From IMG/VR virus record IMGVR_UViG_3300017763_000003: 64,000 nt of DNA; one strand, given 5' to 3'. Below, piece after piece: positions 1 to 57,814 of this stretch. A program made the position numbers and the translations under genes. The DNA comes from a virus. The notes beneath the pieces were generated by a model. That model did not search any database, was not told the DNA's origin, and was given only the letters and a program-made list of their open reading frames with translations. Numbering within the stretch: the stretch's first letter is position 1; each line of letters starts with the position of its first letter.

Positions 1-162
1 GGCAACTCTGCTTATAAACAATTCATGGCAGGGACTGATGAAAAGCATCGTATGGAAACTGATATAGACAAATATCTCGAAGAAGAAGAGGAAAGAGAGA
101 AAAAATTGCGTGACCTTTTAGACGATGATGACGATGATTTATCAGTTGGACACAACAAATAA
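1..162 (+). CDS. 3' end of acidic hypothetical protein (partial)
   Basis: Open frame from window start to TAA at 160-162 (…DDDDDDLSVGHNK*). Confidence 0.6.
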   Translation, partial: GNSAYKQFMAGTDEKHRMETDIDKYLEEEEEREKKLRDLLDDDDDDLSVGHNK

Positions 163-6489: not shown

Positions 6490-7503
6490 ATGATTTATGT
6501 GGACGCAAAATATGCGAGTATGCTTGCACCTCGTGTAAGAAACTTTAAACAACAGAAGGATTATCTATGGAACTTTTCCTGTCCTCTCTGTGGAGACTCA
6601 CAAAAAAATCAATCAAAAGCTAGAGGATATATCTATAGAAAAGAGTCCTCGTTATTTTACAAGTGCCATAACTGTCAAGCTGGCAGTAGTCTAGGCAACT
6701 TGCTCAAGCAGGTTGACCAAAGAATCTATAATGAGTACTCCCTTGAAAAATTTGGTAGTACTAATAATAAACATATTACAGATAAACCTGATTTAGAAAT
6801 ATTCAAAACAGATACGAACTTGGCTTATACCTCGCTAAAACATGCCAACTTAGTATCTACTTTGGATAACTCGCACCCAATCAAGAAGTTCTTGTTAAGA
6901 CGACACATAAATCACGATCTTCATCAACACTTCTTTTGGGTGCCCAGATTTAAAGAATGGGTGAATAATAATATAGTCATGAAGTTTCATCAGATAGAAA
7001 GTGATGAGCCAAGATTAGTTATACCATTTTACAATGAAGAAAAAGAATTAATAGCGATACAAGGCAGATCTTTCGGAAATGAAACACCTAAGTATTATAC
7101 AATCAAAACAAATGAAAAAAATCATAAAGTATATGGTCTCGACCGAGTAGATAAAGATAGACATGTTTATGTTGTCGAAGGTCCAATCGATAGTTTGTTT
7201 CTAGATAATTGTATTGCTACAGCTGGTGCTGACTTTAATATACCACAAGTCAGTCAGTTTAAAGATAACTGTACTATCGTATTTGATAATGAACCAAGAA
7301 ACTCTGCCATAGTAAAGCAGATTGAGAAAATGATTAATCATGGGTTTCGTGTTTGTTTATGGAATGATAGTGTGAAAGAAAAAGATATTAATGAAATGAT
7401 TATGGCAGGTAAAACACCTCTAACAATACATGCTCTTATAGAACATAATAGTGTAGAGGGTGTTGATGCTGTGGCTAAATTTAACTTATGGAGAAAATGC
7501 TAA
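6490..7503 (+). CDS. gp61: DNA primase
   Basis: CPLCGDS…CHNC zinc finger, VVEGPIDSLF and FDNEPRN TOPRIM motifs. Confidence 0.95.
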   Translation: MIYVDAKYASMLAPRVRNFKQQKDYLWNFSCPLCGDSQKNQSKARGYIYRKESSLFYKCHNCQAGSSLGNLLKQVDQRIYNEYSLEKFGSTNNKHITDKPDLEIFKTDTNLAYTSLKHANLVSTLDNSHPIKKFLLRRHINHDLHQHFFWVPRFKEWVNNNIVMKFHQIESDEPRLVIPFYNEEKELIAIQGRSFGNETPKYYTIKTNEKNHKVYGLDRVDKDRHVYVVEGPIDSLFLDNCIATAGADFNIPQVSQFKDNCTIVFDNEPRNSAIVKQIEKMINHGFRVCLWNDSVKEKDINEMIMAGKTPLTIHALIEHNSVEGVDAVAKFNLWRKC

Positions 7504-8003
7504 TGAGCGAAGTTCCTTTTGATAGAGCAGACTTATTAAAAGATTATATTCATGATGTAGAAATTACTGAAGACTTGGTAAGAAACTTTTGTAAAATTAT
7601 TCAAGATGATAATCCTTTACACTTTGGTGATGAAGAGGGTAATGTTATGCCAGGAGCATTAATGATATCCTTATTGTATTCTAATCCTGTTCCTGGATTT
7701 TTTATTAGAAATTTTAAAATTAATTTCCTAGCACCAATACACTTTCCTACAACAGTAAAATGTTATCGAAAAGTATGGAAAGCTACAGATAGAAAAGCAG
7801 GTGAACTTGGTGAAGGTATATTCGCTATAAAAGACATGAGCGATGGCATCATAAAAGCTAAAGGCAGTGGTCAAGTATTTAGACCAACCAAAAGATTAAT
7901 GGAGACATTTGAACAAGGTGTCGATAGAAACTTTTTTAAATCAAGCGACCCAAACTTTGAAAGAAGACATTGGGTCAATCCCGAAGGGAAGGAGATAAAA
8001 TGA
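7488..8003 (+). CDS. MaoC-like hot-dog fold (R)-specific dehydratase
   Basis: F…QDDNPLH hydratase motif, PGALMISL, FLAPIHF. Confidence 0.65.
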   Translation: MEKMLMSEVPFDRADLLKDYIHDVEITEDLVRNFCKIIQDDNPLHFGDEEGNVMPGALMISLLYSNPVPGFFIRNFKINFLAPIHFPTTVKCYRKVWKATDRKAGELGEGIFAIKDMSDGIIKAKGSGQVFRPTKRLMETFEQGVDRNFFKSSDPNFERRHWVNPEGKEIK

Positions 8004-11203: not shown

Positions 11204-12118
11204 ATGATAAACTTGCCAGAACATCTTAGTTATGACAAAGAAGCAATAGCCAAACTAAGAACACAAAAAATATTTCGTTATGGAGATGTAAAAAGATTTG
11301 ATGACGAGTTAGATTTCCTTATGGGTTTCGTACCTGATTTAACAAGGGATTTTTTAACAGAATATGAAGATATAGAAGATTGCCTAAAAAGAGGTACGAC
11401 TTCTGCATTAGAATCAATATACAGTCAGTTGAAACGATCTCGTGAAGGAAGTCCCGATAAGATTGCTAGAGCAAAGATGCAAGTGGGTATGGATGATAAT
11501 ATGCTAAAGGGTCAATCAACTGCAGGTGAATATAATAACGATGCTTGGCGAGTCTTAGTTATGAAATACCATAACCCAAATATTGTTGGGTCTGGTGCTG
11601 ATGAAAAGATTCAAAAGCGAATGTTAAACATCAAACAAAAGCAAGACGGATATAATCCTGAAGCATTCCCAACTATGAAAAAAATTGCTGAGCATTATAA
11701 AGAAAGATGCCCTATACTTGAATACAGTATATTACCTGCTCAAAGTATTATTGAAAGACACATAGGTATAGAAAATAAGAAAGGGGAAAATATTAGAATA
11801 CATATTCCTCTTATAGTACCTGAGGGAGATTTATTTTTAGAAGCACAGGGCGAGGAAGTTGATTGGCAACACCCATGGGGATTTAATAATCAATATATGC
11901 ATAGTGCTCATAACAATACTGATGAGCATAGATTGATTATGCTGATTGATTTAAAAAGAACTTATGTTGGTATCCCACCAGCAAAACATTTTAAGGATAT
12001 GACTTTAGATGAAATCGGTGATGTCCATTTTAAATACGCAAGAGATAATAAACGAGAGCAACCTGAAATCTCATCATCTCTTTCTAATAAATTCAGGAAA
12101 CAAGAGGATTATATATGA
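11204..12118 (+). CDS. aspartyl/asparaginyl beta-hydroxylase family oxygenase
   Basis: IERHIG…IRIHIPLIVP…FNNQYMHSAHN…RLIMLID. Confidence 0.8.
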   Translation: MINLPEHLSYDKEAIAKLRTQKIFRYGDVKRFDDELDFLMGFVPDLTRDFLTEYEDIEDCLKRGTTSALESIYSQLKRSREGSPDKIARAKMQVGMDDNMLKGQSTAGEYNNDAWRVLVMKYHNPNIVGSGADEKIQKRMLNIKQKQDGYNPEAFPTMKKIAEHYKERCPILEYSILPAQSIIERHIGIENKKGENIRIHIPLIVPEGDLFLEAQGEEVDWQHPWGFNNQYMHSAHNNTDEHRLIMLIDLKRTYVGIPPAKHFKDMTLDEIGDVHFKYARDNKREQPEISSSLSNKFRKQEDYI

Positions 12119-25540: not shown

Positions 25541-25836
25541 TGCCAGATATTTTCATAGATACTATTTTTTACATAGTGCTTACTGCATTTGTAGGCAGTG
25601 GAGACACTCTTCATTCCAACTGGACTATACCATTTGAAAATAGAAACGAGTGTGCTTATTTTTTAAAGAATAATATAAAAGAATACCCATTACCATTTCA
25701 AAAGGATGAGACAGGAAACTACACTATATCTCATGGGGAAACTACTTACTATGTAGAATTTTGGTCACACTCATGTCAGGAATTTTACTATGACCAAGAA
25801 AGTGGTAAGTGGAAACAAGTCCCTTATTCAATCTAA
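25537..25836 (+). CDS. hypothetical exported protein
   Basis: N-terminal hydrophobic segment. Confidence 0.55.
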   Translation: MMPDIFIDTIFYIVLTAFVGSGDTLHSNWTIPFENRNECAYFLKNNIKEYPLPFQKDETGNYTISHGETTYYVEFWSHSCQEFYYDQESGKWKQVPYSI

Positions 25837-26536
25837 ATACTTAATCCCATTAAACATCCCTAAAATAGAAAGACCTAATCTTTGGTCAACTGATAAGAAA
25901 ACAATTACAGTTATCAATCTTACAAAGGATGGGGAACAAACTACTGGTCTTCAACATGAAGATATTAATCTATTAGACCAAGAGATGCATTTTAATGTTG
26001 GTGAATATGCAGATAGTCATGAACATGGTGGTCAATGGAAACAAAACTCTTTTCCTTGGGAACTTCGCCCAGAGGTAATACCTGAAGTTGTACATAGATA
26101 TCTTAATTGGATTCCTGGAGGTTGGTATTGTATTGTTCTAACCACACCACCTAATTCTAAGATGGCATTACATTGTCATTCTCGCCAGCATGGAGACTCG
26201 TGGGCGATAAACATGACTTGGGGAGAAGGAGAACATCATACAGACTTCTACTCTCACCCAACATGGGATTTTAATTTCCAAGAATCTATTGCTCAAAGAG
26301 ATAAAGAAAAATTTAAGCATAGGGAAGATATCTATGCTATCTTAACTGAGAAAGAACAGGCAGAATGCACCAGAGTATTCACTCATCAGAATAATGGAAC
26401 CTGCCTTATCAACCTATCTACTATTCATGGTGTTAGAAACCATAGTAATAAACCACGCACAACCCTCCAATTTGCCCCATATATACCTTTAAAGCTAGAA
26501 ACAGCTCTTAAAAACCTTAAAAACAGGGTAAAATAA
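25790..26536 (+). CDS. cupin/2OG-oxygenase-like protein
   Basis: LHCH…IHGVRN…RTTLQF. Confidence 0.55.
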   Translation: MTKKVVSGNKSLIQSKYLIPLNIPKIERPNLWSTDKKTITVINLTKDGEQTTGLQHEDINLLDQEMHFNVGEYADSHEHGGQWKQNSFPWELRPEVIPEVVHRYLNWIPGGWYCIVLTTPPNSKMALHCHSRQHGDSWAINMTWGEGEHHTDFYSHPTWDFNFQESIAQRDKEKFKHREDIYAILTEKEQAECTRVFTHQNNGTCLINLSTIHGVRNHSNKPRTTLQFAPYIPLKLETALKNLKNRVK

Positions 26537-29071: not shown

Positions 29072-29338
29072 ATGGTAAAACCACTAGAAGAAAGAATCAC
29101 AACTCTGAAAGATTTAGAGAATGGTATCGAGTATGCTGGTGAAGTTCGTGTATGTACCGAAGATAGATTAGTAGTAGCATATAGAGAAGGAACTACTGCT
29201 GAAAAGAAAGAGGTACAGTTTGATGTTTATGATTCGGCTACAGATAAATGGACAAGAGAAGATTGGGAGTGTACTTATCCTAACATAGATAAGTTAAACG
29301 CAACTGATATTACTGTTCGTGTAAGCAATCATAGATGA
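29072..29338 (+). CDS. hypothetical protein
   Basis: ORF in operon. Confidence 0.6.
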   Translation: MVKPLEERITTLKDLENGIEYAGEVRVCTEDRLVVAYREGTTAEKKEVQFDVYDSATDKWTREDWECTYPNIDKLNATDITVRVSNHR

Positions 29339-30096
29339 AAGTAGCTGTTGTTATGGGAGTGGCGAACGATCGCTCCATCGCATGGGGTATCGCCAACAAG
29401 TTAATAGATGAAGGATATACTTGTGTCTTCACTTATCCAAACGATTCCATAAAGAAAAGAATTACTAGACTATCGCCTATGGCTCATACTATTAAGTGCG
29501 ATGTATCTAATAGTATGGATGTAAGGAATGCTTTTCTTGCTGTCAAACACCATTATCCTAAGATTGATTATGTTGTTCACGCAATGAGTATGACTGACTT
29601 TCGTGAGTTAGATGGTAAGATGATGGATATATCAAAGGAAAACTTCAGTGAGTCGCTACTCGTAGGATGTTATTCGTTGATAGATATAGTAAGAAACAGT
29701 ATCGAATTTATGAACACAGGTGGGGCATATCTCACACTTAGTTATGATGGAGCTCGTAGAGTTTACGACAACTATAATGTAATGGGATTAGTAAAAGCAT
29801 CACTTGAGTCAGCAACTAGATACTTAGCGAAAGACTGTGCGGAAAAGGGAGTACGCATAAATTGTATATCGGCAGGTGTAATAAAAACATCATCTGCTAT
29901 GGCTGTAAAAGGCAGTAAGGGTATGTTGGCTTATGCCGAAGGAGTGAACCCTATGAAACGAAATATCACTCTACAGGATTTAGCAGGAAGTGCATATTAC
30001 TTCCTATCTGATTTATCTTCAGGTGTGACAGGTGAAACACATTATGTAGATTGCGGATATAATATTATTGGGGCACCGAGTATAGATGACTTATAA
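29335..30096 (+). CDS. fabI: enoyl-ACP reductase
   Basis: GVANDRSIAWGIA, LSY, YNVMGLVKASLE (Tyr-x6-Lys), ISAGVIKT, GVTGETHYVDCG. Confidence 0.92.
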   Translation: MKVAVVMGVANDRSIAWGIANKLIDEGYTCVFTYPNDSIKKRITRLSPMAHTIKCDVSNSMDVRNAFLAVKHHYPKIDYVVHAMSMTDFRELDGKMMDISKENFSESLLVGCYSLIDIVRNSIEFMNTGGAYLTLSYDGARRVYDNYNVMGLVKASLESATRYLAKDCAEKGVRINCISAGVIKTSSAMAVKGSKGMLAYAEGVNPMKRNITLQDLAGSAYYFLSDLSSGVTGETHYVDCGYNIIGAPSIDDL

Positions 30097-30559
30097 TGTA
30101 ATTAATCGTAAATGGGCAACCATGAAAGACGAAAAACTAAAGATGCAACTGAATGGTTTTGTAATGAATACTTCGGTTGATAAGATTGATGAGTTGTTTG
30201 ATGAAGGTATTATTCGTTATGTAGTCAATCATCAATTATTTGAACTTGACCATGAGCGACAAATATTTTTTGAAGAAGGTGATAAACGAGTACCAGTAGC
30301 GAAAGCAAATACAGCAACCATAGGCGAACATAAAGTATATTGCGAGATAGTATTAGAGGGAGAAGAGTTTCCTGAATTCTGTCAGAAAAATGTAAGAGGT
30401 ACTGCTTGGGATTGGCATCAAAAAGCCAATAAAACTATGGACGAAATTAATGAGCATAAATACTATATAGATCCCGATAAAGGCGAACTAACTATATTAG
30501 AGGAGAGAAAAAGTGATGAAGAGATTAAGCAGGACAGAGCGAAGTCAACTAATAGTTGA
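30086..30559 (+). CDS. hypothetical protein
   Basis: ORF between fabI and acpS. Confidence 0.6.
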   Translation: MTYNVINRKWATMKDEKLKMQLNGFVMNTSVDKIDELFDEGIIRYVVNHQLFELDHERQIFFEEGDKRVPVAKANTATIGEHKVYCEIVLEGEEFPEFCQKNVRGTAWDWHQKANKTMDEINEHKYYIDPDKGELTILEERKSDEEIKQDRAKSTNS

Positions 30560-30758
30560 TGCTCTAGTCAAAAAATATGAAGGTGATATTGCTGAAGCAA
30601 ATGCTAATATGCAAGTCTATATATCCAACTCAGTTGGTATAGGTGAGCATTCAGAAGTCATGGTTGAAATAGATAAACAACTAGAAAAGATTTCTGCTGC
30701 TGAAGAAAAACTAGAAACATTGAAGAAGTACACTTCAAGAGAGTACTACCAAACATGA
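30513..30758 (+). CDS. conserved phage hypothetical protein
   Basis: YEGDIAEA.AN..VY..NSVGIGEH. Confidence 0.65.
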   Translation: MMKRLSRTERSQLIVDALVKKYEGDIAEANANMQVYISNSVGIGEHSEVMVEIDKQLEKISAAEEKLETLKKYTSREYYQT

Positions 30759-31108
30759 TTTTAGGACACGGAATTGATATGGTTCTTGAGTCTAGATTTG
30801 ATAGACGCAGGGATAAATGGTCGGAAACTATATTGTCGCCGACTGAAAAAGAAATATATGATGGACTGTTAGATAGGCAGAAATGTAATTATCTAGCAAA
30901 GGTATGGGTGTTAAAAGAAGCATTTGTGAAAGCAAGACAACACCCAATCGTTGGTATGAAAGAAGCTAAAATGTTTTCCTATATCTCACCGAACTTAGTA
31001 CCGAGTGACGAGATGAGGAAAAAATTAACAGGGGTAAACATACATTGTTCACTATCGGATTTCAAAGGTTGCGTGATTGGCTCAGTAATTTTAGAGAGCA
31101 ACACTTAA
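30755..31108 (+). CDS. acpS: holo-ACP synthase (4'-phosphopantetheinyl transferase)
   Basis: MILGHGIDMV, ILSPTE, WVLKEAFVKA, HCSLSD. Confidence 0.8.
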   Translation: MILGHGIDMVLESRFDRRRDKWSETILSPTEKEIYDGLLDRQKCNYLAKVWVLKEAFVKARQHPIVGMKEAKMFSYISPNLVPSDEMRKKLTGVNIHCSLSDFKGCVIGSVILESNT

Positions 31109-31992
31109 CCACATATAAAATTAATTTTCGTATCAGATACTGGTGGTTCACCCAGTTGTGTCTGCTAGGAATCATTGTATTTGGAAGATGGGATCTAATA
31201 CCCTATGTTTTGGCATGGTGGTTTTTCGGAGCAATGGCTATCACAATATATGCGCACAGAAGTTTATCACATAATAGTATTACTGTAAAATGGAAATGGC
31301 TCGAACACTTCTTCTGCTCTCTTTGTATAGTAAGCAACATCGGAAGTCCACTAGCTTGGGCAGTAATACATCGGATGCACCATGTATATCTAGACGAGGA
31401 AAGGGATCCGCACAGTCCACATCAAATTGGTTTTTTAAGATCTTTAACTCATAGGTGGGATGTACCCTTTGAAAATGTACCACTAAGATTTACAAGAGGA
31501 TTACTGAGAAATAAAACTGCTAGATGGTATCACGATAATAGTTTTAAATCTATGTGTATTACTATATTTGGTGCTTACTTATTAATGTTGTTATGGGGAA
31601 TCATTGTAGAAACATATACAAATGGATTAGCAGTTATGCTACCAGAGTTGGGGTATTACTTAACACATTTTTATTGGTACGATGGTCCATACTTATACAT
31701 TCAAGAGTGGGGTATTAATTTTGCATGGGCAGCATTTGCTGGTGCAGGTCTCGGTCAATGGTCTATGGGTATAACTAACGCATGGCAACATAGTGACAAA
31801 CGAGGAAAACAACATATTCGTAATGTCCCATGGTATTTAAGTTTCATAAACTGGGGAGAAGGATCCCACGATTATCATCATTCTTATCCAAAGGACTTTA
31901 GTTTTGGTAAAGGATTAAACGATCCGACACAATATTTTATTCTTTTCTTAGAAAAGATTGGAGCAGTGAATATAAATAAAGTTAGAGGTTAA
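31045..31992 (+). CDS. membrane-bound fatty acid desaturase (delta-9 type); start uncertain
   Basis: His boxes HRSLSH, HRMHH, HDYHH; DPHSP; GEGSH; TM helices. Confidence 0.85.
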   Translation: MFTIGFQRLRDWLSNFREQHLTTYKINFRIRYWWFTQLCLLGIIVFGRWDLIPYVLAWWFFGAMAITIYAHRSLSHNSITVKWKWLEHFFCSLCIVSNIGSPLAWAVIHRMHHVYLDEERDPHSPHQIGFLRSLTHRWDVPFENVPLRFTRGLLRNKTARWYHDNSFKSMCITIFGAYLLMLLWGIIVETYTNGLAVMLPELGYYLTHFYWYDGPYLYIQEWGINFAWAAFAGAGLGQWSMGITNAWQHSDKRGKQHIRNVPWYLSFINWGEGSHDYHHSYPKDFSFGKGLNDPTQYFILFLEKIGAVNINKVRG

Positions 31993-32130
31993 GATTCGCA
32001 TGGTGAAAGCTACACATATTAGAAAATAAAGTAGCCACTTCACTGAGTTGCTTATTTCATAAGTTTAACTCCTCTATCTGAGAGTCATGCGTTCGGTTTT
32101 GGTAGTTTCCGAATTAACAAAAAACTACCA
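31983..32130 (+). ncRNA. candidate structured RNA with 3' H-type pseudoknot
   Basis: TATAAATA at 31971-31978; helices GTGAA/TTCAC, GCTAC/GTAGC, CTTAT/ATAAG, CGCATG/CATGCG; pseudoknot TTCGG/CCGAA plus TGGTAGTTT/AAACTACCA. Confidence 0.55.
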
Positions 32131-32162
32131 CTTGACTAACTTCCAATATGAAAGGATACACA

Positions 32163-32462
32163 ATGGAAGAATTGGTTTTTGAAATGGAAAGTGGCTTGGT
32201 TAATTATATCATAATTCTTACTTTTTCACTTTTATTTTTTATACTAGGATGGGCAATGCCAAGAGGTAGTGCCTTAAAAAGACTCCAAGGTAAAATCTTC
32301 AAAAGGTTTTATAATTGGACAGGAGCAGTAATGGTTAAGTTCCATAATTTCTTCGCTGATGAAGAATTTTATTTGGAGCATGTATGGCAAGATACTAAGG
32401 ACTATGTGCGTAAAAAATATGGATACGAAAAGAAAAAAACTAAAACTACGAAAAAGAAATAA
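32163..32462 (+). CDS. membrane-anchored hypothetical protein
   Basis: SD AAAGGA; one TM helix. Confidence 0.6.
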   Translation: MEELVFEMESGLVNYIIILTFSLLFFILGWAMPRGSALKRLQGKIFKRFYNWTGAVMVKFHNFFADEEFYLEHVWQDTKDYVRKKYGYEKKKTKTTKKK

Positions 32463-33250
32463 TGTTTAGACCACCATATCATGTAGAGTTGAAGGATGTT
32501 CCATTCCCATTGACTGAAGCAGAACTTGCTAAACAGATAGCAAGGTATGATAAAGAAAGTGGCGACTGGGCAAAACGCAGAGAAGATTTAATACCTGACC
32601 AATGGTACACTGATAAATCTTCATACTCATACGCAGCATATGGTTTCGTAGCAAATCTATGGATTAAACATTTTAACTTCAATCCTGAGTTTCTAAAATG
32701 GTTAGATAGAAATATGATGGCACCTGCTTTGGTGGGTACTATATTTGTATCTCCTCCAGGATATTCACTCAGACCACACATAGATTATGTCGATTATAAT
32801 ATCAATTATTATTGGCGATTAAACTTCCCTGTAAATTTAGATGAAAACGCAGATAAAAGTATGGCATTCTGGGATCCTCGTGACTGTAATATGGAACGCA
32901 GGAATAAAATCAGACACCCAAAGATGCCATATACTGAAATAAATTTAATAGAGTTTGATGACGAAACTAGACCTAAAGTAAAGAAACACTTTGATACCCA
33001 GATGGGTAAATGCTCACTTATATGTGTGGGTGGACCTGACTGTGCTCATAGTATGATTTATGATGGCGAAAAAGAATCCTATACTATTTCTATTGACTTT
33101 AGAGATAAACGAACTGGTTCAAGGATACATGATTGGAAAGCGATAGAAAAAAGAATGGGACATTTATTTGTAAAAGATGACAAACCATCTCCTATCTCAG
33201 CATGGGTAAAAGAAGATGGTGAGTTTGGATGGAGTAGAGATATAACATGA
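32462..33250 (+). CDS. Fe/2OG-type (cupin) oxygenase-like protein
   Basis: SPPGYSLRPHID…WRLNFP…AHS. Confidence 0.55.
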   Translation: MFRPPYHVELKDVPFPLTEAELAKQIARYDKESGDWAKRREDLIPDQWYTDKSSYSYAAYGFVANLWIKHFNFNPEFLKWLDRNMMAPALVGTIFVSPPGYSLRPHIDYVDYNINYYWRLNFPVNLDENADKSMAFWDPRDCNMERRNKIRHPKMPYTEINLIEFDDETRPKVKKHFDTQMGKCSLICVGGPDCAHSMIYDGEKESYTISIDFRDKRTGSRIHDWKAIEKRMGHLFVKDDKPSPISAWVKEDGEFGWSRDIT

Positions 33251-34275
33251 AACACGAACCTTACTACATGTCGTTGAAGGATACACTTGAACGACCTATT
33301 ACTAACGAAGACCTACATCAAATATTAGCACCACTAAGAGAAAATCCAGCACGAGGTAATATATGTGTAAGGAATAGTTGGTTTCGTATTGAGATGATGA
33401 AACAATGGAGAGACATGATGCTTATGCCATATGGCTGTAGTATATTTCGTGCTCATCCATATTATCGTATGTCTCCCCACTGCGATTCTCCAGCAAGACC
33501 GAACTGGGGAAGAGTGACTTGGGCATTCGAAGAGGTAAGTCCTGGAATATATGAACCATGGCGACCTGATGAAGAAGAAACTTCTATCATGACATACTGG
33601 GATGCGAGTGAAGCTGAACAGTGGGACTCTGATATGTGTAATGTATCAGGCGATCCTGAAAAAGATTTAACTTATATTATACCAAGAGAAAGAATACTTC
33701 CTGGATATCAAGGCAATCTAAAAGAAGAATTAAGTTTTCAAATGTCATATCCTGGATTAATTAATGTGGGACAACCACACTCAGTATGGCATAACTCTCC
33801 TAAAACTAGAATCGCAATATCTATTGAATTTATGAATAGAAAAGGTGAGTTTGAAGGATGGGATAAATTAGCTAAAACTTTAGATCGATTCGGTTATGCT
33901 GATATGGAAACTGATAATAGAACAGTAAAATATGGGTCACGATTACATAATGGTTTATTTTCGTGCCTATATAATAAAGAGACTAATGAAGATGTTCCCG
34001 AAACTGTATTTGATGGAGAGCAACTAAAAGATAAATTAGAAAAACATCTAGGCACTAATGCTAAAGGTATGTCTTGGGATGAAGCAGAAGATGTTTATCT
34101 ATCAAATCGATTACTTGGTAGAGGACAAGAGCAAGGAAAGATGTTGAAGGAACAAGGACTAGGTTATGATGACTTCTTAGAAAAACCTGGAGTTCCTTTT
34201 AAATTAGTATTCGGTAATGTAATGCAAAGTCTAATAAACATAGAGGATGAGTACAGAAAAAAATATCCTAAATGA
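33247..34275 (+). CDS. Fe/2OG-type (cupin) oxygenase-like protein
   Basis: PHCD…LINVGQPHSVWHNSPKTRIAISI. Confidence 0.55.
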   Translation: MKHEPYYMSLKDTLERPITNEDLHQILAPLRENPARGNICVRNSWFRIEMMKQWRDMMLMPYGCSIFRAHPYYRMSPHCDSPARPNWGRVTWAFEEVSPGIYEPWRPDEEETSIMTYWDASEAEQWDSDMCNVSGDPEKDLTYIIPRERILPGYQGNLKEELSFQMSYPGLINVGQPHSVWHNSPKTRIAISIEFMNRKGEFEGWDKLAKTLDRFGYADMETDNRTVKYGSRLHNGLFSCLYNKETNEDVPETVFDGEQLKDKLEKHLGTNAKGMSWDEAEDVYLSNRLLGRGQEQGKMLKEQGLGYDDFLEKPGVPFKLVFGNVMQSLINIEDEYRKKYPK

Positions 34276-34553
34276 AAACATTTATAATTTTGACAGCACT
34301 GTTATGGTATGAAGGCATTGGTACAGTACAAACTGACTTTACCTCTATATCATTTTCTAGTCATGAAGAGTGTCAAGAATATGTGTTTAATAACAAAGTA
34401 GATCTCATAGATGGATTATTAGAAAAGCATCGTATGAAAAATGATAAAGTATTCGGTATGGTAGAACTTAGAAGTTTCGAGTTATTTTGCGAGACTAAGT
34501 ATATACTAGAGGAAGAAGATAAAGAAGAATCTAAATATTTAATGGAGTTATAA
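34272..34553 (+). CDS. hypothetical exported protein
   Basis: Hydrophobic N-terminus, F.S.EEC motif. Confidence 0.55.
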   Translation: MKTFIILTALLWYEGIGTVQTDFTSISFSSHEECQEYVFNNKVDLIDGLLEKHRMKNDKVFGMVELRSFELFCETKYILEEEDKEESKYLMEL

Positions 34554-34554
34554 T

Positions 34555-35757
34555 ATGAAACCTGTGCATGTAGTTGGTTATGGTATGAGCGATGCTCTCG
34601 GCATCACTCCCGAAGAATGTTTCACAAAAATGCTAGACGAGAATGATTACTCTCGTGAAATCCCTGGCATGGCAAAACAAGTAGAAGAAATTTTCCACTT
34701 AGTAATTCATCGTGGTGCTATGCATGATGAAGATCGTATAGTTATGCCTGAAGGGTTTGACAAAAAGATGTGGCGAAGTATGACCAATGCTCAAAAGATG
34801 ATGAGTAGTACTACTGAGTCAGCTATGCAGATGGCTGGTATAGAACGCAGTCCTAAAGTAGCAACCCTTGCCAGTACAGTTTCAAATGATACTGAAGGAA
34901 TCGATGTGTACTTTGAATATATTAAGTACATGAAACGAGGTAATGCTCGTAGAGCAGTAAATAGGATTCCTGATATGGGATGTATGCATATTACATCTTA
35001 CTATGGCTTCAAAGGTTTATCAACTGCTACATTCGCATCTTGTGCTACTGGTATGGTCAATATAGATTATGCTATGAGATTAGTAGATGAGTATGACTAT
35101 GTTATCTGTACTGCTGGTGACTGTGCTAACTTCCCTATGGGTATTAAATACTTTGCTTGTTTAGGAGCATTAGCAAACTGGTCAATGCCCTTTGATGATA
35201 GACGACAAGGTTTCTTGATGGGCGATGGTGGAGCATGTATGATTTTACAATCAGAAGAAAAGATGAAAGAGTTTGGAAGTAAATCATATGCTAAATTACA
35301 CAAAGCAGGTATGGCAAGTGACGCAGTAGATATGGTAAACCCAGAAGGAACTGGTACTCGTACTTCTATGCAAGATGCTTTAAGTCATGCTGGTTTAGAT
35401 AAAGTTGATTATGTATGTACTCATGGTACAAGTACTATCGCTGGTGACCCAATCGAATATGAAGCAGTCACTGAAATTATGCCAGGAACTAAAATGTGGG
35501 CACCGAAAAGTAAAATCGGTCATACACTTGCAGCATCTGGTATTCTTGAAGGATGTTATGCTATTGAAAGTATGAGACAAGGCTGGGTTCCACATATTCA
35601 AAATTTAGAACAATCAAGTATAGATGTACATGGTACTCTAGTTCGTGAGAATGAAATGTACTCAAACCAACTTCGTACTCGTACGATGCTAAATAATTCG
35701 TTTGGCTTTGGTGGTAAATGTATGTCGCAAGTAATAGAGGTGAACTTAGATGACTGA
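34555..35757 (+). CDS. fabF: beta-ketoacyl-ACP synthase (FabF/FabB family)
   Basis: ASCATG (Cys), THGTST (His), KIGHTLAASG (His), PFDDRRQGF, NSFGFGG. Confidence 0.88.
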   Translation: MKPVHVVGYGMSDALGITPEECFTKMLDENDYSREIPGMAKQVEEIFHLVIHRGAMHDEDRIVMPEGFDKKMWRSMTNAQKMMSSTTESAMQMAGIERSPKVATLASTVSNDTEGIDVYFEYIKYMKRGNARRAVNRIPDMGCMHITSYYGFKGLSTATFASCATGMVNIDYAMRLVDEYDYVICTAGDCANFPMGIKYFACLGALANWSMPFDDRRQGFLMGDGGACMILQSEEKMKEFGSKSYAKLHKAGMASDAVDMVNPEGTGTRTSMQDALSHAGLDKVDYVCTHGTSTIAGDPIEYEAVTEIMPGTKMWAPKSKIGHTLAASGILEGCYAIESMRQGWVPHIQNLEQSSIDVHGTLVRENEMYSNQLRTRTMLNNSFGFGGKCMSQVIEVNLDD

Positions 35758-36040
35758 AGAACAAATGGATATGTTTGGCGATCCTACTGATAAGAAAAGG
35801 ATATTGGAACTTGAAGCAGAAGTAAAAAACTTGAGACAGGCATACGATGTATTGGCTCAAGAATATGAGAAACTATCAGACCAAGTACCAACTGCAATGA
35901 AAGATATACGAACTGAACCACTTTACACAAACGAAGTGGTTAATGCTGAAACTGGACAACGAAGAAGAGTCCCCACTAGAAAACTGGCAGACTGGGAAGA
36001 AGCTGGTGTACCAAAGGAGCAAATACATGGCTGGGATTGA
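35750..36040 (+). CDS. hypothetical protein
   Basis: ORF in operon. Confidence 0.6.
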   Translation: MTEEQMDMFGDPTDKKRILELEAEVKNLRQAYDVLAQEYEKLSDQVPTAMKDIRTEPLYTNEVVNAETGQRRRVPTRKLADWEEAGVPKEQIHGWD

Positions 36041-56250: not shown

Positions 56251-57000
56251 TTAGATTCTTTTATATTCTATGTTGGGATCGCCAGTTATTTGCTCCATTT
56301 TATCGTAAGCAAGTCCTGGAGGGATGTCTAAATATCTCCTATCAAAGTCAATCAGGAGTATTAGTCGGTGTTCGAAGGAATAATTATGAGCAGAATGAGT
56401 ATATTGATTATTAAAACCGAAGCAATCAGACCAATCCACCTCTGAACCATTTACCTCTAAGAATATATCTCCCTTGGGTATATGTAGTGGTATATGTACT
56501 CTCAGGTGATGTCCACGACGATTCTCAGGTCCAGTATGCCTATGTATTACCGAATCCTTTACTAATATGCTATAATTAGCGATAGGAACGACTTCTTCAT
56601 ACTGCTTTAATATCTTATTTGCTGTAGGATACTGGGGTCTGGCTTTCTCTCCTTCTGTATCACGATATATTGTAGAGGGTGGTTGGTATTTTAAATATAC
56701 ATTTTGCCATGCGTCTAGCTTTGCTGGTTTCTTATCTTTACTACCTGAAGCATGACCCATACTATCCCTACTCATTACAGGCACAGCTTTATTATCTAAC
56801 ACCCATTGTAATTTTTTATCCATGCTCCACTTTTCATCTAAGTGACCAACGAGGTCATTTATTAGATTATCTTTCTGAGCAGATAACTCATCAAATATAT
56901 TATCTAACTTAGGATACTCTCCTCGTTTAAATATCTTTTGTTCTTGTATTTCTCGTAGTCTTTGTTTTGGTATTTCTGACCACCATGGCAAATTAATCAT
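56251..57000 (-). CDS. aspartyl/asparaginyl beta-hydroxylase family oxygenase
   Basis: IHRHTGPEN…LRVHIPL…FNNQYTHSAHN…RLILLID. Confidence 0.8.
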   Translation of the reverse strand: MINLPWWSEIPKQRLREIQEQKIFKRGEYPKLDNIFDELSAQKDNLINDLVGHLDEKWSMDKKLQWVLDNKAVPVMSRDSMGHASGSKDKKPAKLDAWQNVYLKYQPPSTIYRDTEGEKARPQYPTANKILKQYEEVVPIANYSILVKDSVIHRHTGPENRRGHHLRVHIPLHIPKGDIFLEVNGSEVDWSDCFGFNNQYTHSAHNYSFEHRLILLIDFDRRYLDIPPGLAYDKMEQITGDPNIEYKRI

Positions 57001-57814
57001 TATCTATTGCTCCTGACTTCCAACTTGGATTTAATACTTCCCCATCTCGTTCGTAGTCAACCAGATATTTATCTGTACAACCAGTGAGGTCTTGTAGTTT
57101 AGTTATGTAATAAGATGTGGGTATGCCAAGGAATGGTCTATATAAATCTAGTATCATGACCAATCTATGTTTACCTGTTCTGTTGTGTGCTGAATGTACG
57201 ATTTGATTATTAAATGCGAAAGGTGCTTCGCTAAATTGTATCTCCTCGTCATTTACCTCTAGGAATATATCACCTTCAGGAATATGGAGAGGAAAGTGTA
57301 ATCTTAAATACTTACCATCTTTATTTTCATGACCAGTATGACGCAGTACAACTGAGTTTGGGGCAATCATTGAGTAAGTAATTACATTTATCCATTGTTC
57401 ATATTTTTCTAAAATAGATCTTAACACTGGTAATCTATCACGATTCTTTTTCATTCGCTTTTCCATTACACCTTTACCAGCTTCTCCTGGATTCCAAATT
57501 AAATTAAAAGCATGCCAACTATCGAGGTTTCTCTTACCTAACTGTTTATTTCCTACATTGGCTTCTTTCGCCACCTTATACCCAGCAGTTTCAAATACAG
57601 GTAAAGTATCCTCTTCATACATTTTATTTAATCGTTGTTGTATATTGTCTCCTTCATAGGGAAGTAATACTTCTTCTAGTAAGGCAGGGCAGAGGGGGAG
57701 TATGTGGTCAAAGACTTCATCTAACATAGGGTATTCGCCATGTCGGAATATTCCCTGTATTTTTGAGTTGTGTAATTTTTCTCTAGACCACTCTGCGTAT
57801 TCTGGCAGTTTCAT
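56993..57814 (-). CDS. aspartyl/asparaginyl beta-hydroxylase family oxygenase
   Basis: LRHTGHEN…LRLHFPL…FNNQIVHSAHN…RLVMILD. Confidence 0.8.
   Translation of the reverse strand: MKLPEYAEWSREKLHNSKIQGIFRHGEYPMLDEVFDHILPLCPALLEEVLLPYEGDNIQQRLNKMYEEDTLPVFETAGYKVAKEANVGNKQLGKRNLDSWHAFNLIWNPGEAGKGVMEKRMKKNRDRLPVLRSILEKYEQWINVITYSMIAPNSVVLRHTGHENKDGKYLRLHFPLHIPEGDIFLEVNDEEIQFSEAPFAFNNQIVHSAHNRTGKHRLVMILDLYRPFLGIPTSYYITKLQDLTGCTDKYLVDYERDGEVLNPSWKSGAIDND

Follow-up and report, generated by a model that had tools for sequence, protein, structure and literature searches.

Do the genes for fatty-acid enzymes carried by an uncultured marine phage form one linked toolkit, and would such a toolkit feed the synthase of the host or run a line of its own? 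This question is raised by a 64,000-nt stretch of DNA, the virus record IMGVR_UViG_3300017763_000003 (hereafter the window), in which a block at 29335-35757 and a separate locus at 7488-8003 encode predicted proteins of type II fatty-acid synthesis and modification. Here, we studied the identity of these genes, their catalytic residues, their conservation and their occurrence in related phages. We found that four parts carried by the marine phages, namely the genes for an enoyl reductase (FabI), an AcpS, a protein with an acyl carrier protein (ACP) domain and a MaoC-like protein, lie at three separate loci and were gained or lost together. Moreover, the FabI and the beta-ketoacyl synthase (KAS) of the block each fall into a phage-specific clade. 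The reading that we favour, and to which we give an even chance, is a module that plugs into the type II synthase of the host during infection.

The relatives in IMG/VR form two groups, marine and freshwater, and four long relatives (G001-G004) stand in for the rest of the genome. The marine G001 and G002 are 65-73% complete, and the freshwater G003 is complete (145 kb, with terminal repeats). In the open reading frame (ORF) list, the genes of the block were found at the coordinates first predicted for them, all on the + strand. The genes on which the question turns are as follows.

1-159 (+): last 53 codons of a gene for an ACP-domain protein (~325 aa in relatives), the rest of which lies beyond the left edge of the window
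7488-8003 (+): MaoC/PhaJ-like hotdog-fold protein, from the motif DDNPLH and fold matches; 89-92% conserved in G001 and G002
29335-30096 (+): FabI-type enoyl-ACP reductase; PF13561, Tyr-x6-Lys, phage clade, ratio of nonsynonymous to synonymous substitution rates (dN/dS) 0.15
30755-31108 (+): AcpS-type 4'-phosphopantetheinyl transferase; PF01648, Asp8, KEAFVKA
31045-31992 (+): membrane desaturase of the stearoyl-CoA (delta-9) type; PF00487, His boxes, start codon uncertain
32462-33250 (+): predicted double-stranded beta-helix (DSBH) oxygenase of the Fe(II)/2-oxoglutarate (2OG) type, paralogue 1, 262 aa; H106, D108, H196, fold matches
33247-34275 (+): predicted DSBH oxygenase, paralogue 2, 342 aa; extends further at the C-terminus than the 262-aa paralogue (family hidden Markov model, E 1.9e-86)
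34555-35757 (+): FabF-like elongating KAS of a phage-specific clade; PF00109 and PF02801

Enzymes and carrier encoded by the window

FabI matched PF13561 with 229.7 bits over residues 8-243 of its 253 aa. It is ~50% identical to solved alphaproteobacterial FabIs (Liberibacter, Brucella, Bartonella, Anaplasma), and scored 218 bits over residues 4-250 against the solved FabI 4nk4. In an alignment with Pelagibacterales FabIs, Y137, Y147 and K154 (Tyr-x6-Lys) were invariant, as was the N-terminal dinucleotide-binding motif SIAWGIA (G8/A10/S14-A20), in agreement with the original prediction of a FabI with intact NAD-binding and Tyr-x6-Lys motifs. The best NCBIfam equivalog score was 262.9 bits, below the cut-off of 446, in keeping with the long stem of the phage FabIs in the tree described below. 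The phage orthologues are 78-92% identical; next to them come marine environmental proteins at 45-49%, one of which is labelled Pelagibacterales. Among species genomes, Pelagibacteraceae and other Alphaproteobacteria came top at 39-45%, and the closest cellular FabI is only 44-49% identical to the phage protein. In the maximum-likelihood tree, the phage FabIs were monophyletic, with a stem of 2.28 changes/site attached at a node shared with Pelagibacteraceae. This tree comes from a quick search with midpoint rooting, from which the direction of transfer is read. The position of the phage clade beside Pelagibacteraceae fits a host origin, in which case the phage FabI would be a host-derived gene that has kept host-type chemistry.

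The AcpS is a single-domain protein of 117 aa that carries Asp8 and the KEAFVKA motif. It scored 40 bits against PF01648, above the gathering cut-off of 25, and 38.2 bits against TIGR00516, under the cut-off of 59.8. By sequence it is a member of the family, as originally proposed, and transfer of phosphopantetheine is its predicted activity.

A carrier for this transferase had at first not been found in the window, nor had FabD and FabG. No FabD was found among the ORFs of the window, and a scan with the FabI profile and motifs returned no second short-chain dehydrogenase/reductase (SDR) there. However, the tail of an ACP-domain gene lies at 1-159, where it is cut by the edge. This piece is 75% identical (E 2e-12) to L040:10278-11270 in G002, and synteny with the relatives has the ACP gene end at the left edge of the window. 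The carrier gene is thus almost certainly present in this genome, just to the left of the window. In G001 and G002, the protein scored 24-27 bits against PF00550 (cut-off 20.8), and the phosphopantetheine-binding domain carries the DSL serine within the motif DLDIDSLDAIELIM. Unlike a plain AcpP of ~80 aa, the phage ACP domain is embedded in a strongly acidic protein of ~325 aa (L040:10278-11270 in G002; L028 in G001), with long N- and C-terminal extensions and conservation over the full length. Its gene adjoins a 1,289-aa ORF, a gene for a DUF6267 protein and a gene scoring as head protein, which is an unusual place for a carrier. Four small ORFs (29072-29338, 30513-30758, 34272-34553 and 35750-36040) were checked as ACPs and rejected.

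The KAS contains both ketosynthase domains (PF00109, 75.6 bits; PF02801, 78.1 bits). It is ~30% identical to E. coli FabF over residues 89-391, and its first ~90 residues are divergent. The counterparts of E. coli FabF C163/H303/K335/H340/F400 are in place, and C163, H290, K318, H323 and F383 of the phage protein are at least 97% invariant among 121 clade members; the intact Cys-His-His triad claimed for this FabF/B is therefore confirmed. So is the suspicion that it was divergent. The protein scored 183.5 bits against TIGR03150, far below the cut-off of 493.75 and hence below equivalog level, and its identity to the KAS encoded by five Pelagibacterales-like genomes is 28-35%. In the tree, the phage clade was monophyletic with respect to host KAS, with a stem of 1.5, beside a host FabF-like group. 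We identified 1,420 relatives at E < 1e-10, the best 120 of which are unnamed environmental proteins with 44-99% identity.

All six KAS contexts that were checked are phage (L013, L029, L030, L121, L122 and L149). One of them, L149 (GCA_009919195.1, RGCK01000001.1, 56 kb), is filed under a bacterial metagenome-assembled genome ('bacterium' / Candidatus Elulimicrobium). Its gene order is that of the freshwater pelagimyophages (DUF6433, paralogue array, KAS, AdoMet decarboxylase, DenV-like), and it is probably a mis-binned phage contig. In other T4-like phages the KAS occurs without FabI, AcpS or ACP, and in L122 it stands alone amid replication genes. The ketosynthase is a widespread core, usually but not always accompanied by oxygenases.

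In the window, the KAS has two such partners, for which an Fe/2OG-like nature had been predicted. Neither gave a Pfam match even at E 10. The two are paralogous to one another and also to a tandem array of three genes in a freshwater relative, and H106, D108 and H196 are invariant over ten paralogues and orthologues. The AlphaFold model of the 262-aa protein had a predicted local distance difference test (pLDDT) score of 72.6 and a Foldseek E of 3e-4. Nearly all of its top 50 fold matches were 2OG oxygenases (Z 9.7 to 6.5), led by proline 3-hydroxylase (Z 9.7) and followed by PHD2, AspH, FIH, the CurA halogenase domain and PhyH. Thus, the modelled DSBH fold and the HxD...H metal triad support the predicted function of a 2OG-type oxygenase at the level of the fold. 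A language-model (Atlas) lead from the oxygenases to Asp_Arg_Hydrox was weak (27% of one cluster). A phmmer search with the 342-aa protein against 1.8 billion representatives returned its own cluster, three short fragments and one weak match, and a word-indexed search with the 262-aa protein returned close orthologues only. The DSBH protein and the ACP-domain protein had zero matches in GenBank phages.

With the profile of this oxygenase family, copies were detected upstream of the KAS in several contexts: two in the window, three for L013 and six or more in tandem for L121. The latter contig (ERZ28593899 scaffold_8, 161 kb) comes from a T4-like phage with further genes for ribosomal protein S21 and Cpn10. 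Its paralogues, of ~190-220 aa with HxD...H, fill L121:922-6905 directly upstream of the KAS. An oxygenase and KAS cluster richer than that of the window was observed at L030:2553-12777 (ERZ27263776 contig k141_751769, 65.9 kb), where four 2OG-Fe(II) oxygenases and a P450 are followed by two AspH-like genes, KAS, FA_desaturase_2 and PhyH. Here, the AspH pair, the KAS, the soluble acyl-ACP desaturase and PhyH abut or overlap, and an 80-aa ACP is encoded ~7.5 kb upstream. Elsewhere in the window, a 248-aa ORF at 25790-26536 (+) matched the oxygenase family profile weakly (E 5.6e-5) and may be a third, distant paralogue. The genes at 11204-12118 (+) and 56251-57000 (-) score above the Pfam threshold for Asp_Arg_Hydrox (51 and 64 bits). 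They are paralogous to 56993-57814 (30-34% identity), and this family of three is distinct from the oxygenases adjoining the KAS.

The desaturase scored 34.3 bits against PF00487, above the cut-off of 29.7, and its boxes HRSLSH, HRMHH, NAWQH (Asn-x3-His of the stearoyl-CoA desaturase (SCD) type) and HDYHH are all there, as expected for the three-His-box membrane enzyme that had been proposed. Mammalian SCD1 was the sole solved match (E 1e-3), with boxes 1, 2 and 3 aligned; against NCBIfam DesA, the score was 41.8 with a cut-off of 400. From these features a delta-9-type desaturase activity is predicted. The sole in-frame upstream start is a TTG that overlaps AcpS. With dN/dS 0.06 this gene is the most constrained of the block, and a homologue with 38% identity exists in the freshwater lineage. 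The idea that SAR11 lacks membrane desaturases was rejected, as four of five Pelagibacterales-like genomes encode PF00487 proteins; none of these host proteins is similar to the phage desaturase.

For the protein at 7488-8003, a MaoC dehydratase had been predicted, and this assignment held in part. The protein carries DDNPLH at positions 40-45, the hydratase-2 motif D-x-N-P-[LIV]-H, and its language-model neighbours were MaoC clusters (0.92). In a model of low confidence (pLDDT 49.7), the best 50 of 50 fold matches were hotdog proteins, among them PhaJ (R)-hydratase (Z 8.6), the MaoC-like 3exz (Z 8.1), Rv0130, human HTD2 and HadAB. On the other hand, there was no match to the MaoC family PF01575 at E 10, the sole Pfam match being 4HBT (E 0.036), and no solved relative was detected by sequence. 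An hhalign comparison with SAR11 MaoC domains was weak (E 0.011, probability 3.9%) with the register right. The motif and the model point to a probable MaoC-type (R)-3-hydroxyacyl dehydratase/hydratase, with a hotdog thioesterase as the alternative.

Phage setting and distribution among relatives

The PHROG matches in the window include a T4-type primase, NrdA, a head protein, a baseplate tail-tube cap and tail proteins, and the relatives of the tail proteins are those of T4-like cyanophages and of the Methylophilales myophage Melnitz (26-32% identity). At the DNA level, nothing close to the block or to 20 kb of the window was found among GenBank phages. The assignment to the marine pelagimyophages follows from the gene content (AspH-like genes), from the list of auxiliary metabolic genes of Zaragoza-Solas et al. 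2020 (mSystems, PMC7029224) and from a relative of the desaturase in phage Mosig. The source is an uncultured marine T4-like pelagimyophage, and SAR11 is probably its host.

In the marine group, rnh, FabI, orf157, AcpS, the desaturase, both oxygenases, the KAS and a MazG-like gene are all syntenic. The named enzymes show 74-100% amino-acid identity and the small ORFs lower values, across contigs of many different metagenomes. The junctions rnh-DUF6433-orf88-FabI and KAS-MazG-like at the two ends likewise recur in contigs of many metagenomes. Among the contigs that encode these proteins are some of 148-153 kb. The freshwater group keeps rnh, DUF6433, orf88, orf157, the desaturase (38%), three oxygenase paralogues and the KAS (57%). 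Both G001 and G002 have the genes for FabI, AcpS, the ACP domain and the MaoC-like protein, and the complete freshwater G003 yielded none of them; AcpS was not found in G004 either. Moreover, wherever a contig extends over both loci, the MaoC-like gene is there along with the FabI block. The four marine-only parts were thus gained or lost together at three separate loci, which supports one linked toolkit and weakens a reading as unlinked genes in an insertion hot spot. The block genes have dN/dS of 0.05-0.16, as the core gene rnh, and are under purifying selection. As to the co-occurrence and phage-only clades that were to be checked, FabI and KAS fall in phage clades and the parts are shared by marine relatives. 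The linked toolkit of the original prediction gains support from the four co-occurring parts and purifying selection, but the KAS also occurs alone in other phages.

FabI sits exactly between orf88 and orf157, which are direct neighbours in the freshwater lineage (window 29072-30096 compared with L013:3123-3852), and it overlaps its flanking genes at the start and the stop alike. This is the picture of a clean gain or loss of a single gene on a conserved backbone.

Several steps of a complete synthase have no candidate among these genomes. FabD (PF00698), FabA/Z (PF07977), a second SDR (PF00106), PanD (PF02261) and PlsC (PF01553) were not found in G001-G004. A complete type II synthase contains FabD, FabH, FabG and FabZ/A besides ketosynthase, enoyl reductase and ACP, and the phage set as found falls short of it, with no search made for FabH.

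The remaining small genes of the block are the following.

30086-30559 (+): conserved 157-aa protein (orf157); homologue of 32-35% at the same backbone position in the freshwater lineage; no Pfam or PHROG match
30513-30758 (+): 81-aa ORF; 63-77% conserved in marine relatives, dN/dS 0.05-0.14; no significant Pfam match
32148-32462 (+): 104-aa protein with one predicted transmembrane helix and a basic tail; 66-77% in marine relatives, dN/dS 0.11-0.16
34272-34553 (+): 93-aa ORF with a hydrophobic N-terminus; 50-63% identity, missing in several relatives

Start and stop codons overlap along the block, and the large ORFs around it are all on the + strand. The G+C content is uniform (34-37%) with positive GC skew, and both are even across the block, with no shift. 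A scan for promoters and terminators returned 37 promoter-like sites where 41.6 were expected, and TATAAATA occurred 4 times against 9.1 expected. Given that neither exceeds expectation, we claim no expression class for the block.

A host plug-in and its rivals

The original prediction put forward either remodelling of host membrane or lipid A acyl chains or a dedicated acyl product tailored by the oxygenases. In the reading that we favour, the phage plugs a module into the type II synthase of its host. As read from the genes, the enzymatic activities, the order of the steps, the substrates of the oxygenases and the benefit to the phage would be these. The ACP-domain protein would supply a carrier pool, which AcpS would convert to the holo form. 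The FabF-like Cys-His-His ketosynthase would condense with malonyl-ACP, the MaoC/PhaJ-type protein would dehydrate 3-hydroxyacyl thioesters, and FabI would perform enoyl reduction. The desaturase and the DSBH oxygenases may then add oxygen-dependent tailoring, that is, desaturation and probably hydroxylation. The host would still give malonyl-CoA, FabD, FabG, FabH and acyltransferases, and the outcome would be a sustained or reshaped supply of acyl chains for envelope lipids. We favour this host plug-in for three reasons. The KAS found elsewhere without a phage FabI, AcpS or ACP can presumably use host ACP, which makes a link with host synthesis more likely than a pathway that is fully autonomous. 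The FabI appears to come from the host. Finally, host enzymes would be needed in each cycle, because neither G001-G004 nor the window yielded a FabD, a FabA/Z, a second SDR or a PlsC-type acyltransferase.

Other observations weigh against it. KAS, FabI and AcpS score far below their equivalog cut-offs, and with the long FabI stem and the distance of 28-35% identity between phage and host KAS, altered substrates are plausible. The odd acidic carrier of ~325 aa with an AcpS of its own is a hint of an orthogonal system. The oxygenases are called from fold evidence, their best matches are protein and amino-acid hydroxylases, and they may not act on lipids. The MaoC assignment draws on a motif and a low-confidence model, and the failure to find FabG and FabD is no proof of absence, as G001 and G002 are only 65-73% complete.

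Some of these points lead to a dedicated, semi-autonomous phage pathway with its own ACP, AcpS, KAS, MaoC-like protein and FabI, followed by desaturation and hydroxylation of the chain. Its product would be a specialised acyl compound and not bulk membrane fatty acid, perhaps a modified lipid of the envelope that keeps out superinfecting phages, a signalling molecule or a phage protein carrying an acyl chain. We regard such a pathway as fairly improbable. It would explain why the carrier has an unusual architecture and its own phosphopantetheinyl transferase, why the KAS forms a deep clade with phage contexts only at 28-35% identity to host KAS, and why FabI is deeply divergent; yet the KAS stands alone in other phages, FabI is apparently host-derived, and the ACP gene is 29 kb away from the block, next to one that scores as head protein. 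The use of a MaoC-type rather than a FabZ dehydratase would parallel mycobacterial FAS-II (FAS, fatty-acid synthesis) and HTD2 of mitochondrial FAS. In three divergent lineages the KAS is directly preceded by oxygenases (2, 3 and at least 6 copies), and L030 unites ACP, oxygenases, KAS and desaturase in one cluster, all in line with a dedicated product. Against this, a ketoreductase, a malonyl transferase and an off-loading acyltransferase were looked for in the window and G001-G004 and did not turn up. An orthogonal acyl-assembly line in SAR11 myophages that leads to a dedicated oxygenated lipid or acylated protein (for envelope remodelling, superinfection exclusion or signalling), and not to bulk fatty acid, seems to us doubtful.

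The genes might also have no common purpose and be unlinked metabolic genes in an insertion hot spot between the rnh and MazG/HD genes, each acting separately on host metabolism; the DSBH proteins would then be protein, amino-acid or nucleic-acid hydroxylases unrelated to lipids. A hot spot would fit the observation that the gene content between the backbone genes varies by lineage and FabI is inserted exactly between orf88 and orf157, but FabI, AcpS, ACP and the MaoC-like gene lie at three loci and were nevertheless gained or lost together, and start/stop overlaps run along the block. The best fold matches of the oxygenases are prolyl and asparaginyl hydroxylases, and 2OG/AspH-type oxygenases occur elsewhere in pelagimyophages and cyanomyophages (window 11204-12118 and 56251-57000; Mosig), which suits separate roles; the adjacency of oxygenase and KAS, however, recurs in divergent phages, even though the KAS is alone among replication genes in L122. 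Moreover, the parts correspond to biochemically consecutive steps around one carrier. We therefore consider unlinked genes unlikely, though worth keeping in mind. Finally, an assembly chimera or host contamination, with bacterial fab DNA joined to a phage contig, had been named as what would overturn the original prediction. The FabI and KAS/FabF matches in GenBank 'phage' records do mostly look like host DNA. In the present case, however, contigs from many metagenomes share the junctions at both ends, neither G+C nor skew shifts across the block, the cellular FabI (44-49%) and the host KAS (28-35%) are only distantly identical, and both genes fall in phage-only clades. Since synteny holds across independent assemblies, we take a chimera to be practically excluded.

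SAR11 is the most abundant bacterial group of the ocean, and its myophages are almost uncultured. If the phage does provide carrier, activation, condensation, dehydration, enoyl reduction and desaturation, its lipid-synthesis gene set would rank among the most complete in a tailed phage, and acyl-chain supply or envelope lipid composition would then limit or shape the infection of these very small cells with their streamlined genomes. Of wider interest, perhaps, is that a large KAS clade with phage contexts only extends across aquatic T4-like phages, repeatedly in operons with unannotated oxygenase arrays. This KAS-oxygenase association may be a widespread viral function that is now annotated merely as 'fabF' or missed, and it is the most interesting lead. 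The enzymes are small and soluble or easily expressed, and standard assays exist, so that the question can be tested without culturing the phage.

Comparison with known systems

The original prediction knew of no multi-step elongation set in a T4-like phage, but the present set is not without precedent. The pelagimyophage metabolic gene list (Table S5, PMC7029224) already contains fabF, stearoyl-CoA desaturase and acpP, and marine virome surveys have recorded the fab genes fabG, fabF, fabZ and desC (PMC10653327). The phage group (AspH-like genes) and the same three gene families are shared with that list, which is annotation at list level only and makes no mention of FabI, AcpS or a MaoC-like protein. 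In the present lineage, in contrast, the parts co-vary as a set, and 'acpP' is the ~325-aa ACP-domain protein. Freshwater PMP-D combines fabF, desaturase and speH (PMC7029224), and our freshwater contigs (L008-L015, G003 and L149) match it. fabF and stearoyl-CoA desaturase were stated to be unique to the freshwater group (PMC7029224); the marine contigs L001-L007 and the window carry both, and this statement needs revising. No report of FabI, AcpS or a MaoC-type protein in pelagimyophages was found in the literature, and in PHROGs, AcpS, the MaoC-like protein and the oxygenases lack a family, with FabI and KAS matching only weakly. The gene set is a fuller version of viral fab gene carriage that was already known, to which FabI, AcpS and the MaoC-like protein are additions.

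The only GenBank phage relative of the desaturase is the FA_desaturase-domain protein of Mosig EXVC030M (MT647606.1; 27% identity, E 4e-10). Both phages have such a desaturase and an adjoining AspH-type oxygenase in common, the Mosig gene (L150:6318-7594) lying directly after an AspH-domain gene. They differ in that Mosig has no match to the phage KAS, FabI, DSBH family or ACP-domain protein, and its desaturase belongs to a cluster resembling sugar/lipopolysaccharide (LPS) modification. The surroundings there comprise aminotransferases, TauD, a radical-SAM/MoaA-like gene and a methylase, and resemble a sugar/LPS or envelope modification island.

Compared with bacterial type II FAS (E. coli/alphaproteobacterial), the phage set shares a FabI of ~50% identity with its Tyr/Tyr/Lys, the KAS catalytic set, the Asp and Glu/Lys motifs of AcpS and the DSL serine of ACP. 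It differs in that no phage FabD, FabG or FabA/Z was found, in that the dehydratase candidate is of MaoC type and not FabZ, and in that FabI, AcpS and KAS all lie below the NCBIfam equivalog cut-offs. Mycobacterial FAS-II consists of KasA/B, HadAB/BC, InhA and AcpM, and mitochondrial FAS of OXSM, HTD2, MECR, ACP and a phosphopantetheinyl transferase. With these, the phage set has in common a FabF-like ketosynthase, a probable MaoC-type dehydratase, a FabI/InhA-type reductase and a dedicated carrier, and HadAB and HTD2 turned up when the low-confidence model of the 7488-8003 protein was compared with known folds. The likeness is one of parts lists at superfamily level, and no equivalent of MabA/FabG was found in the phage. 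Cyanophages encode lipid desaturases, which are read as membrane-remodelling genes. These desaturases and the virome fab genes are known as genes on their own or as counts of reads, whereas here one genome has five to six consecutive functions that co-vary.

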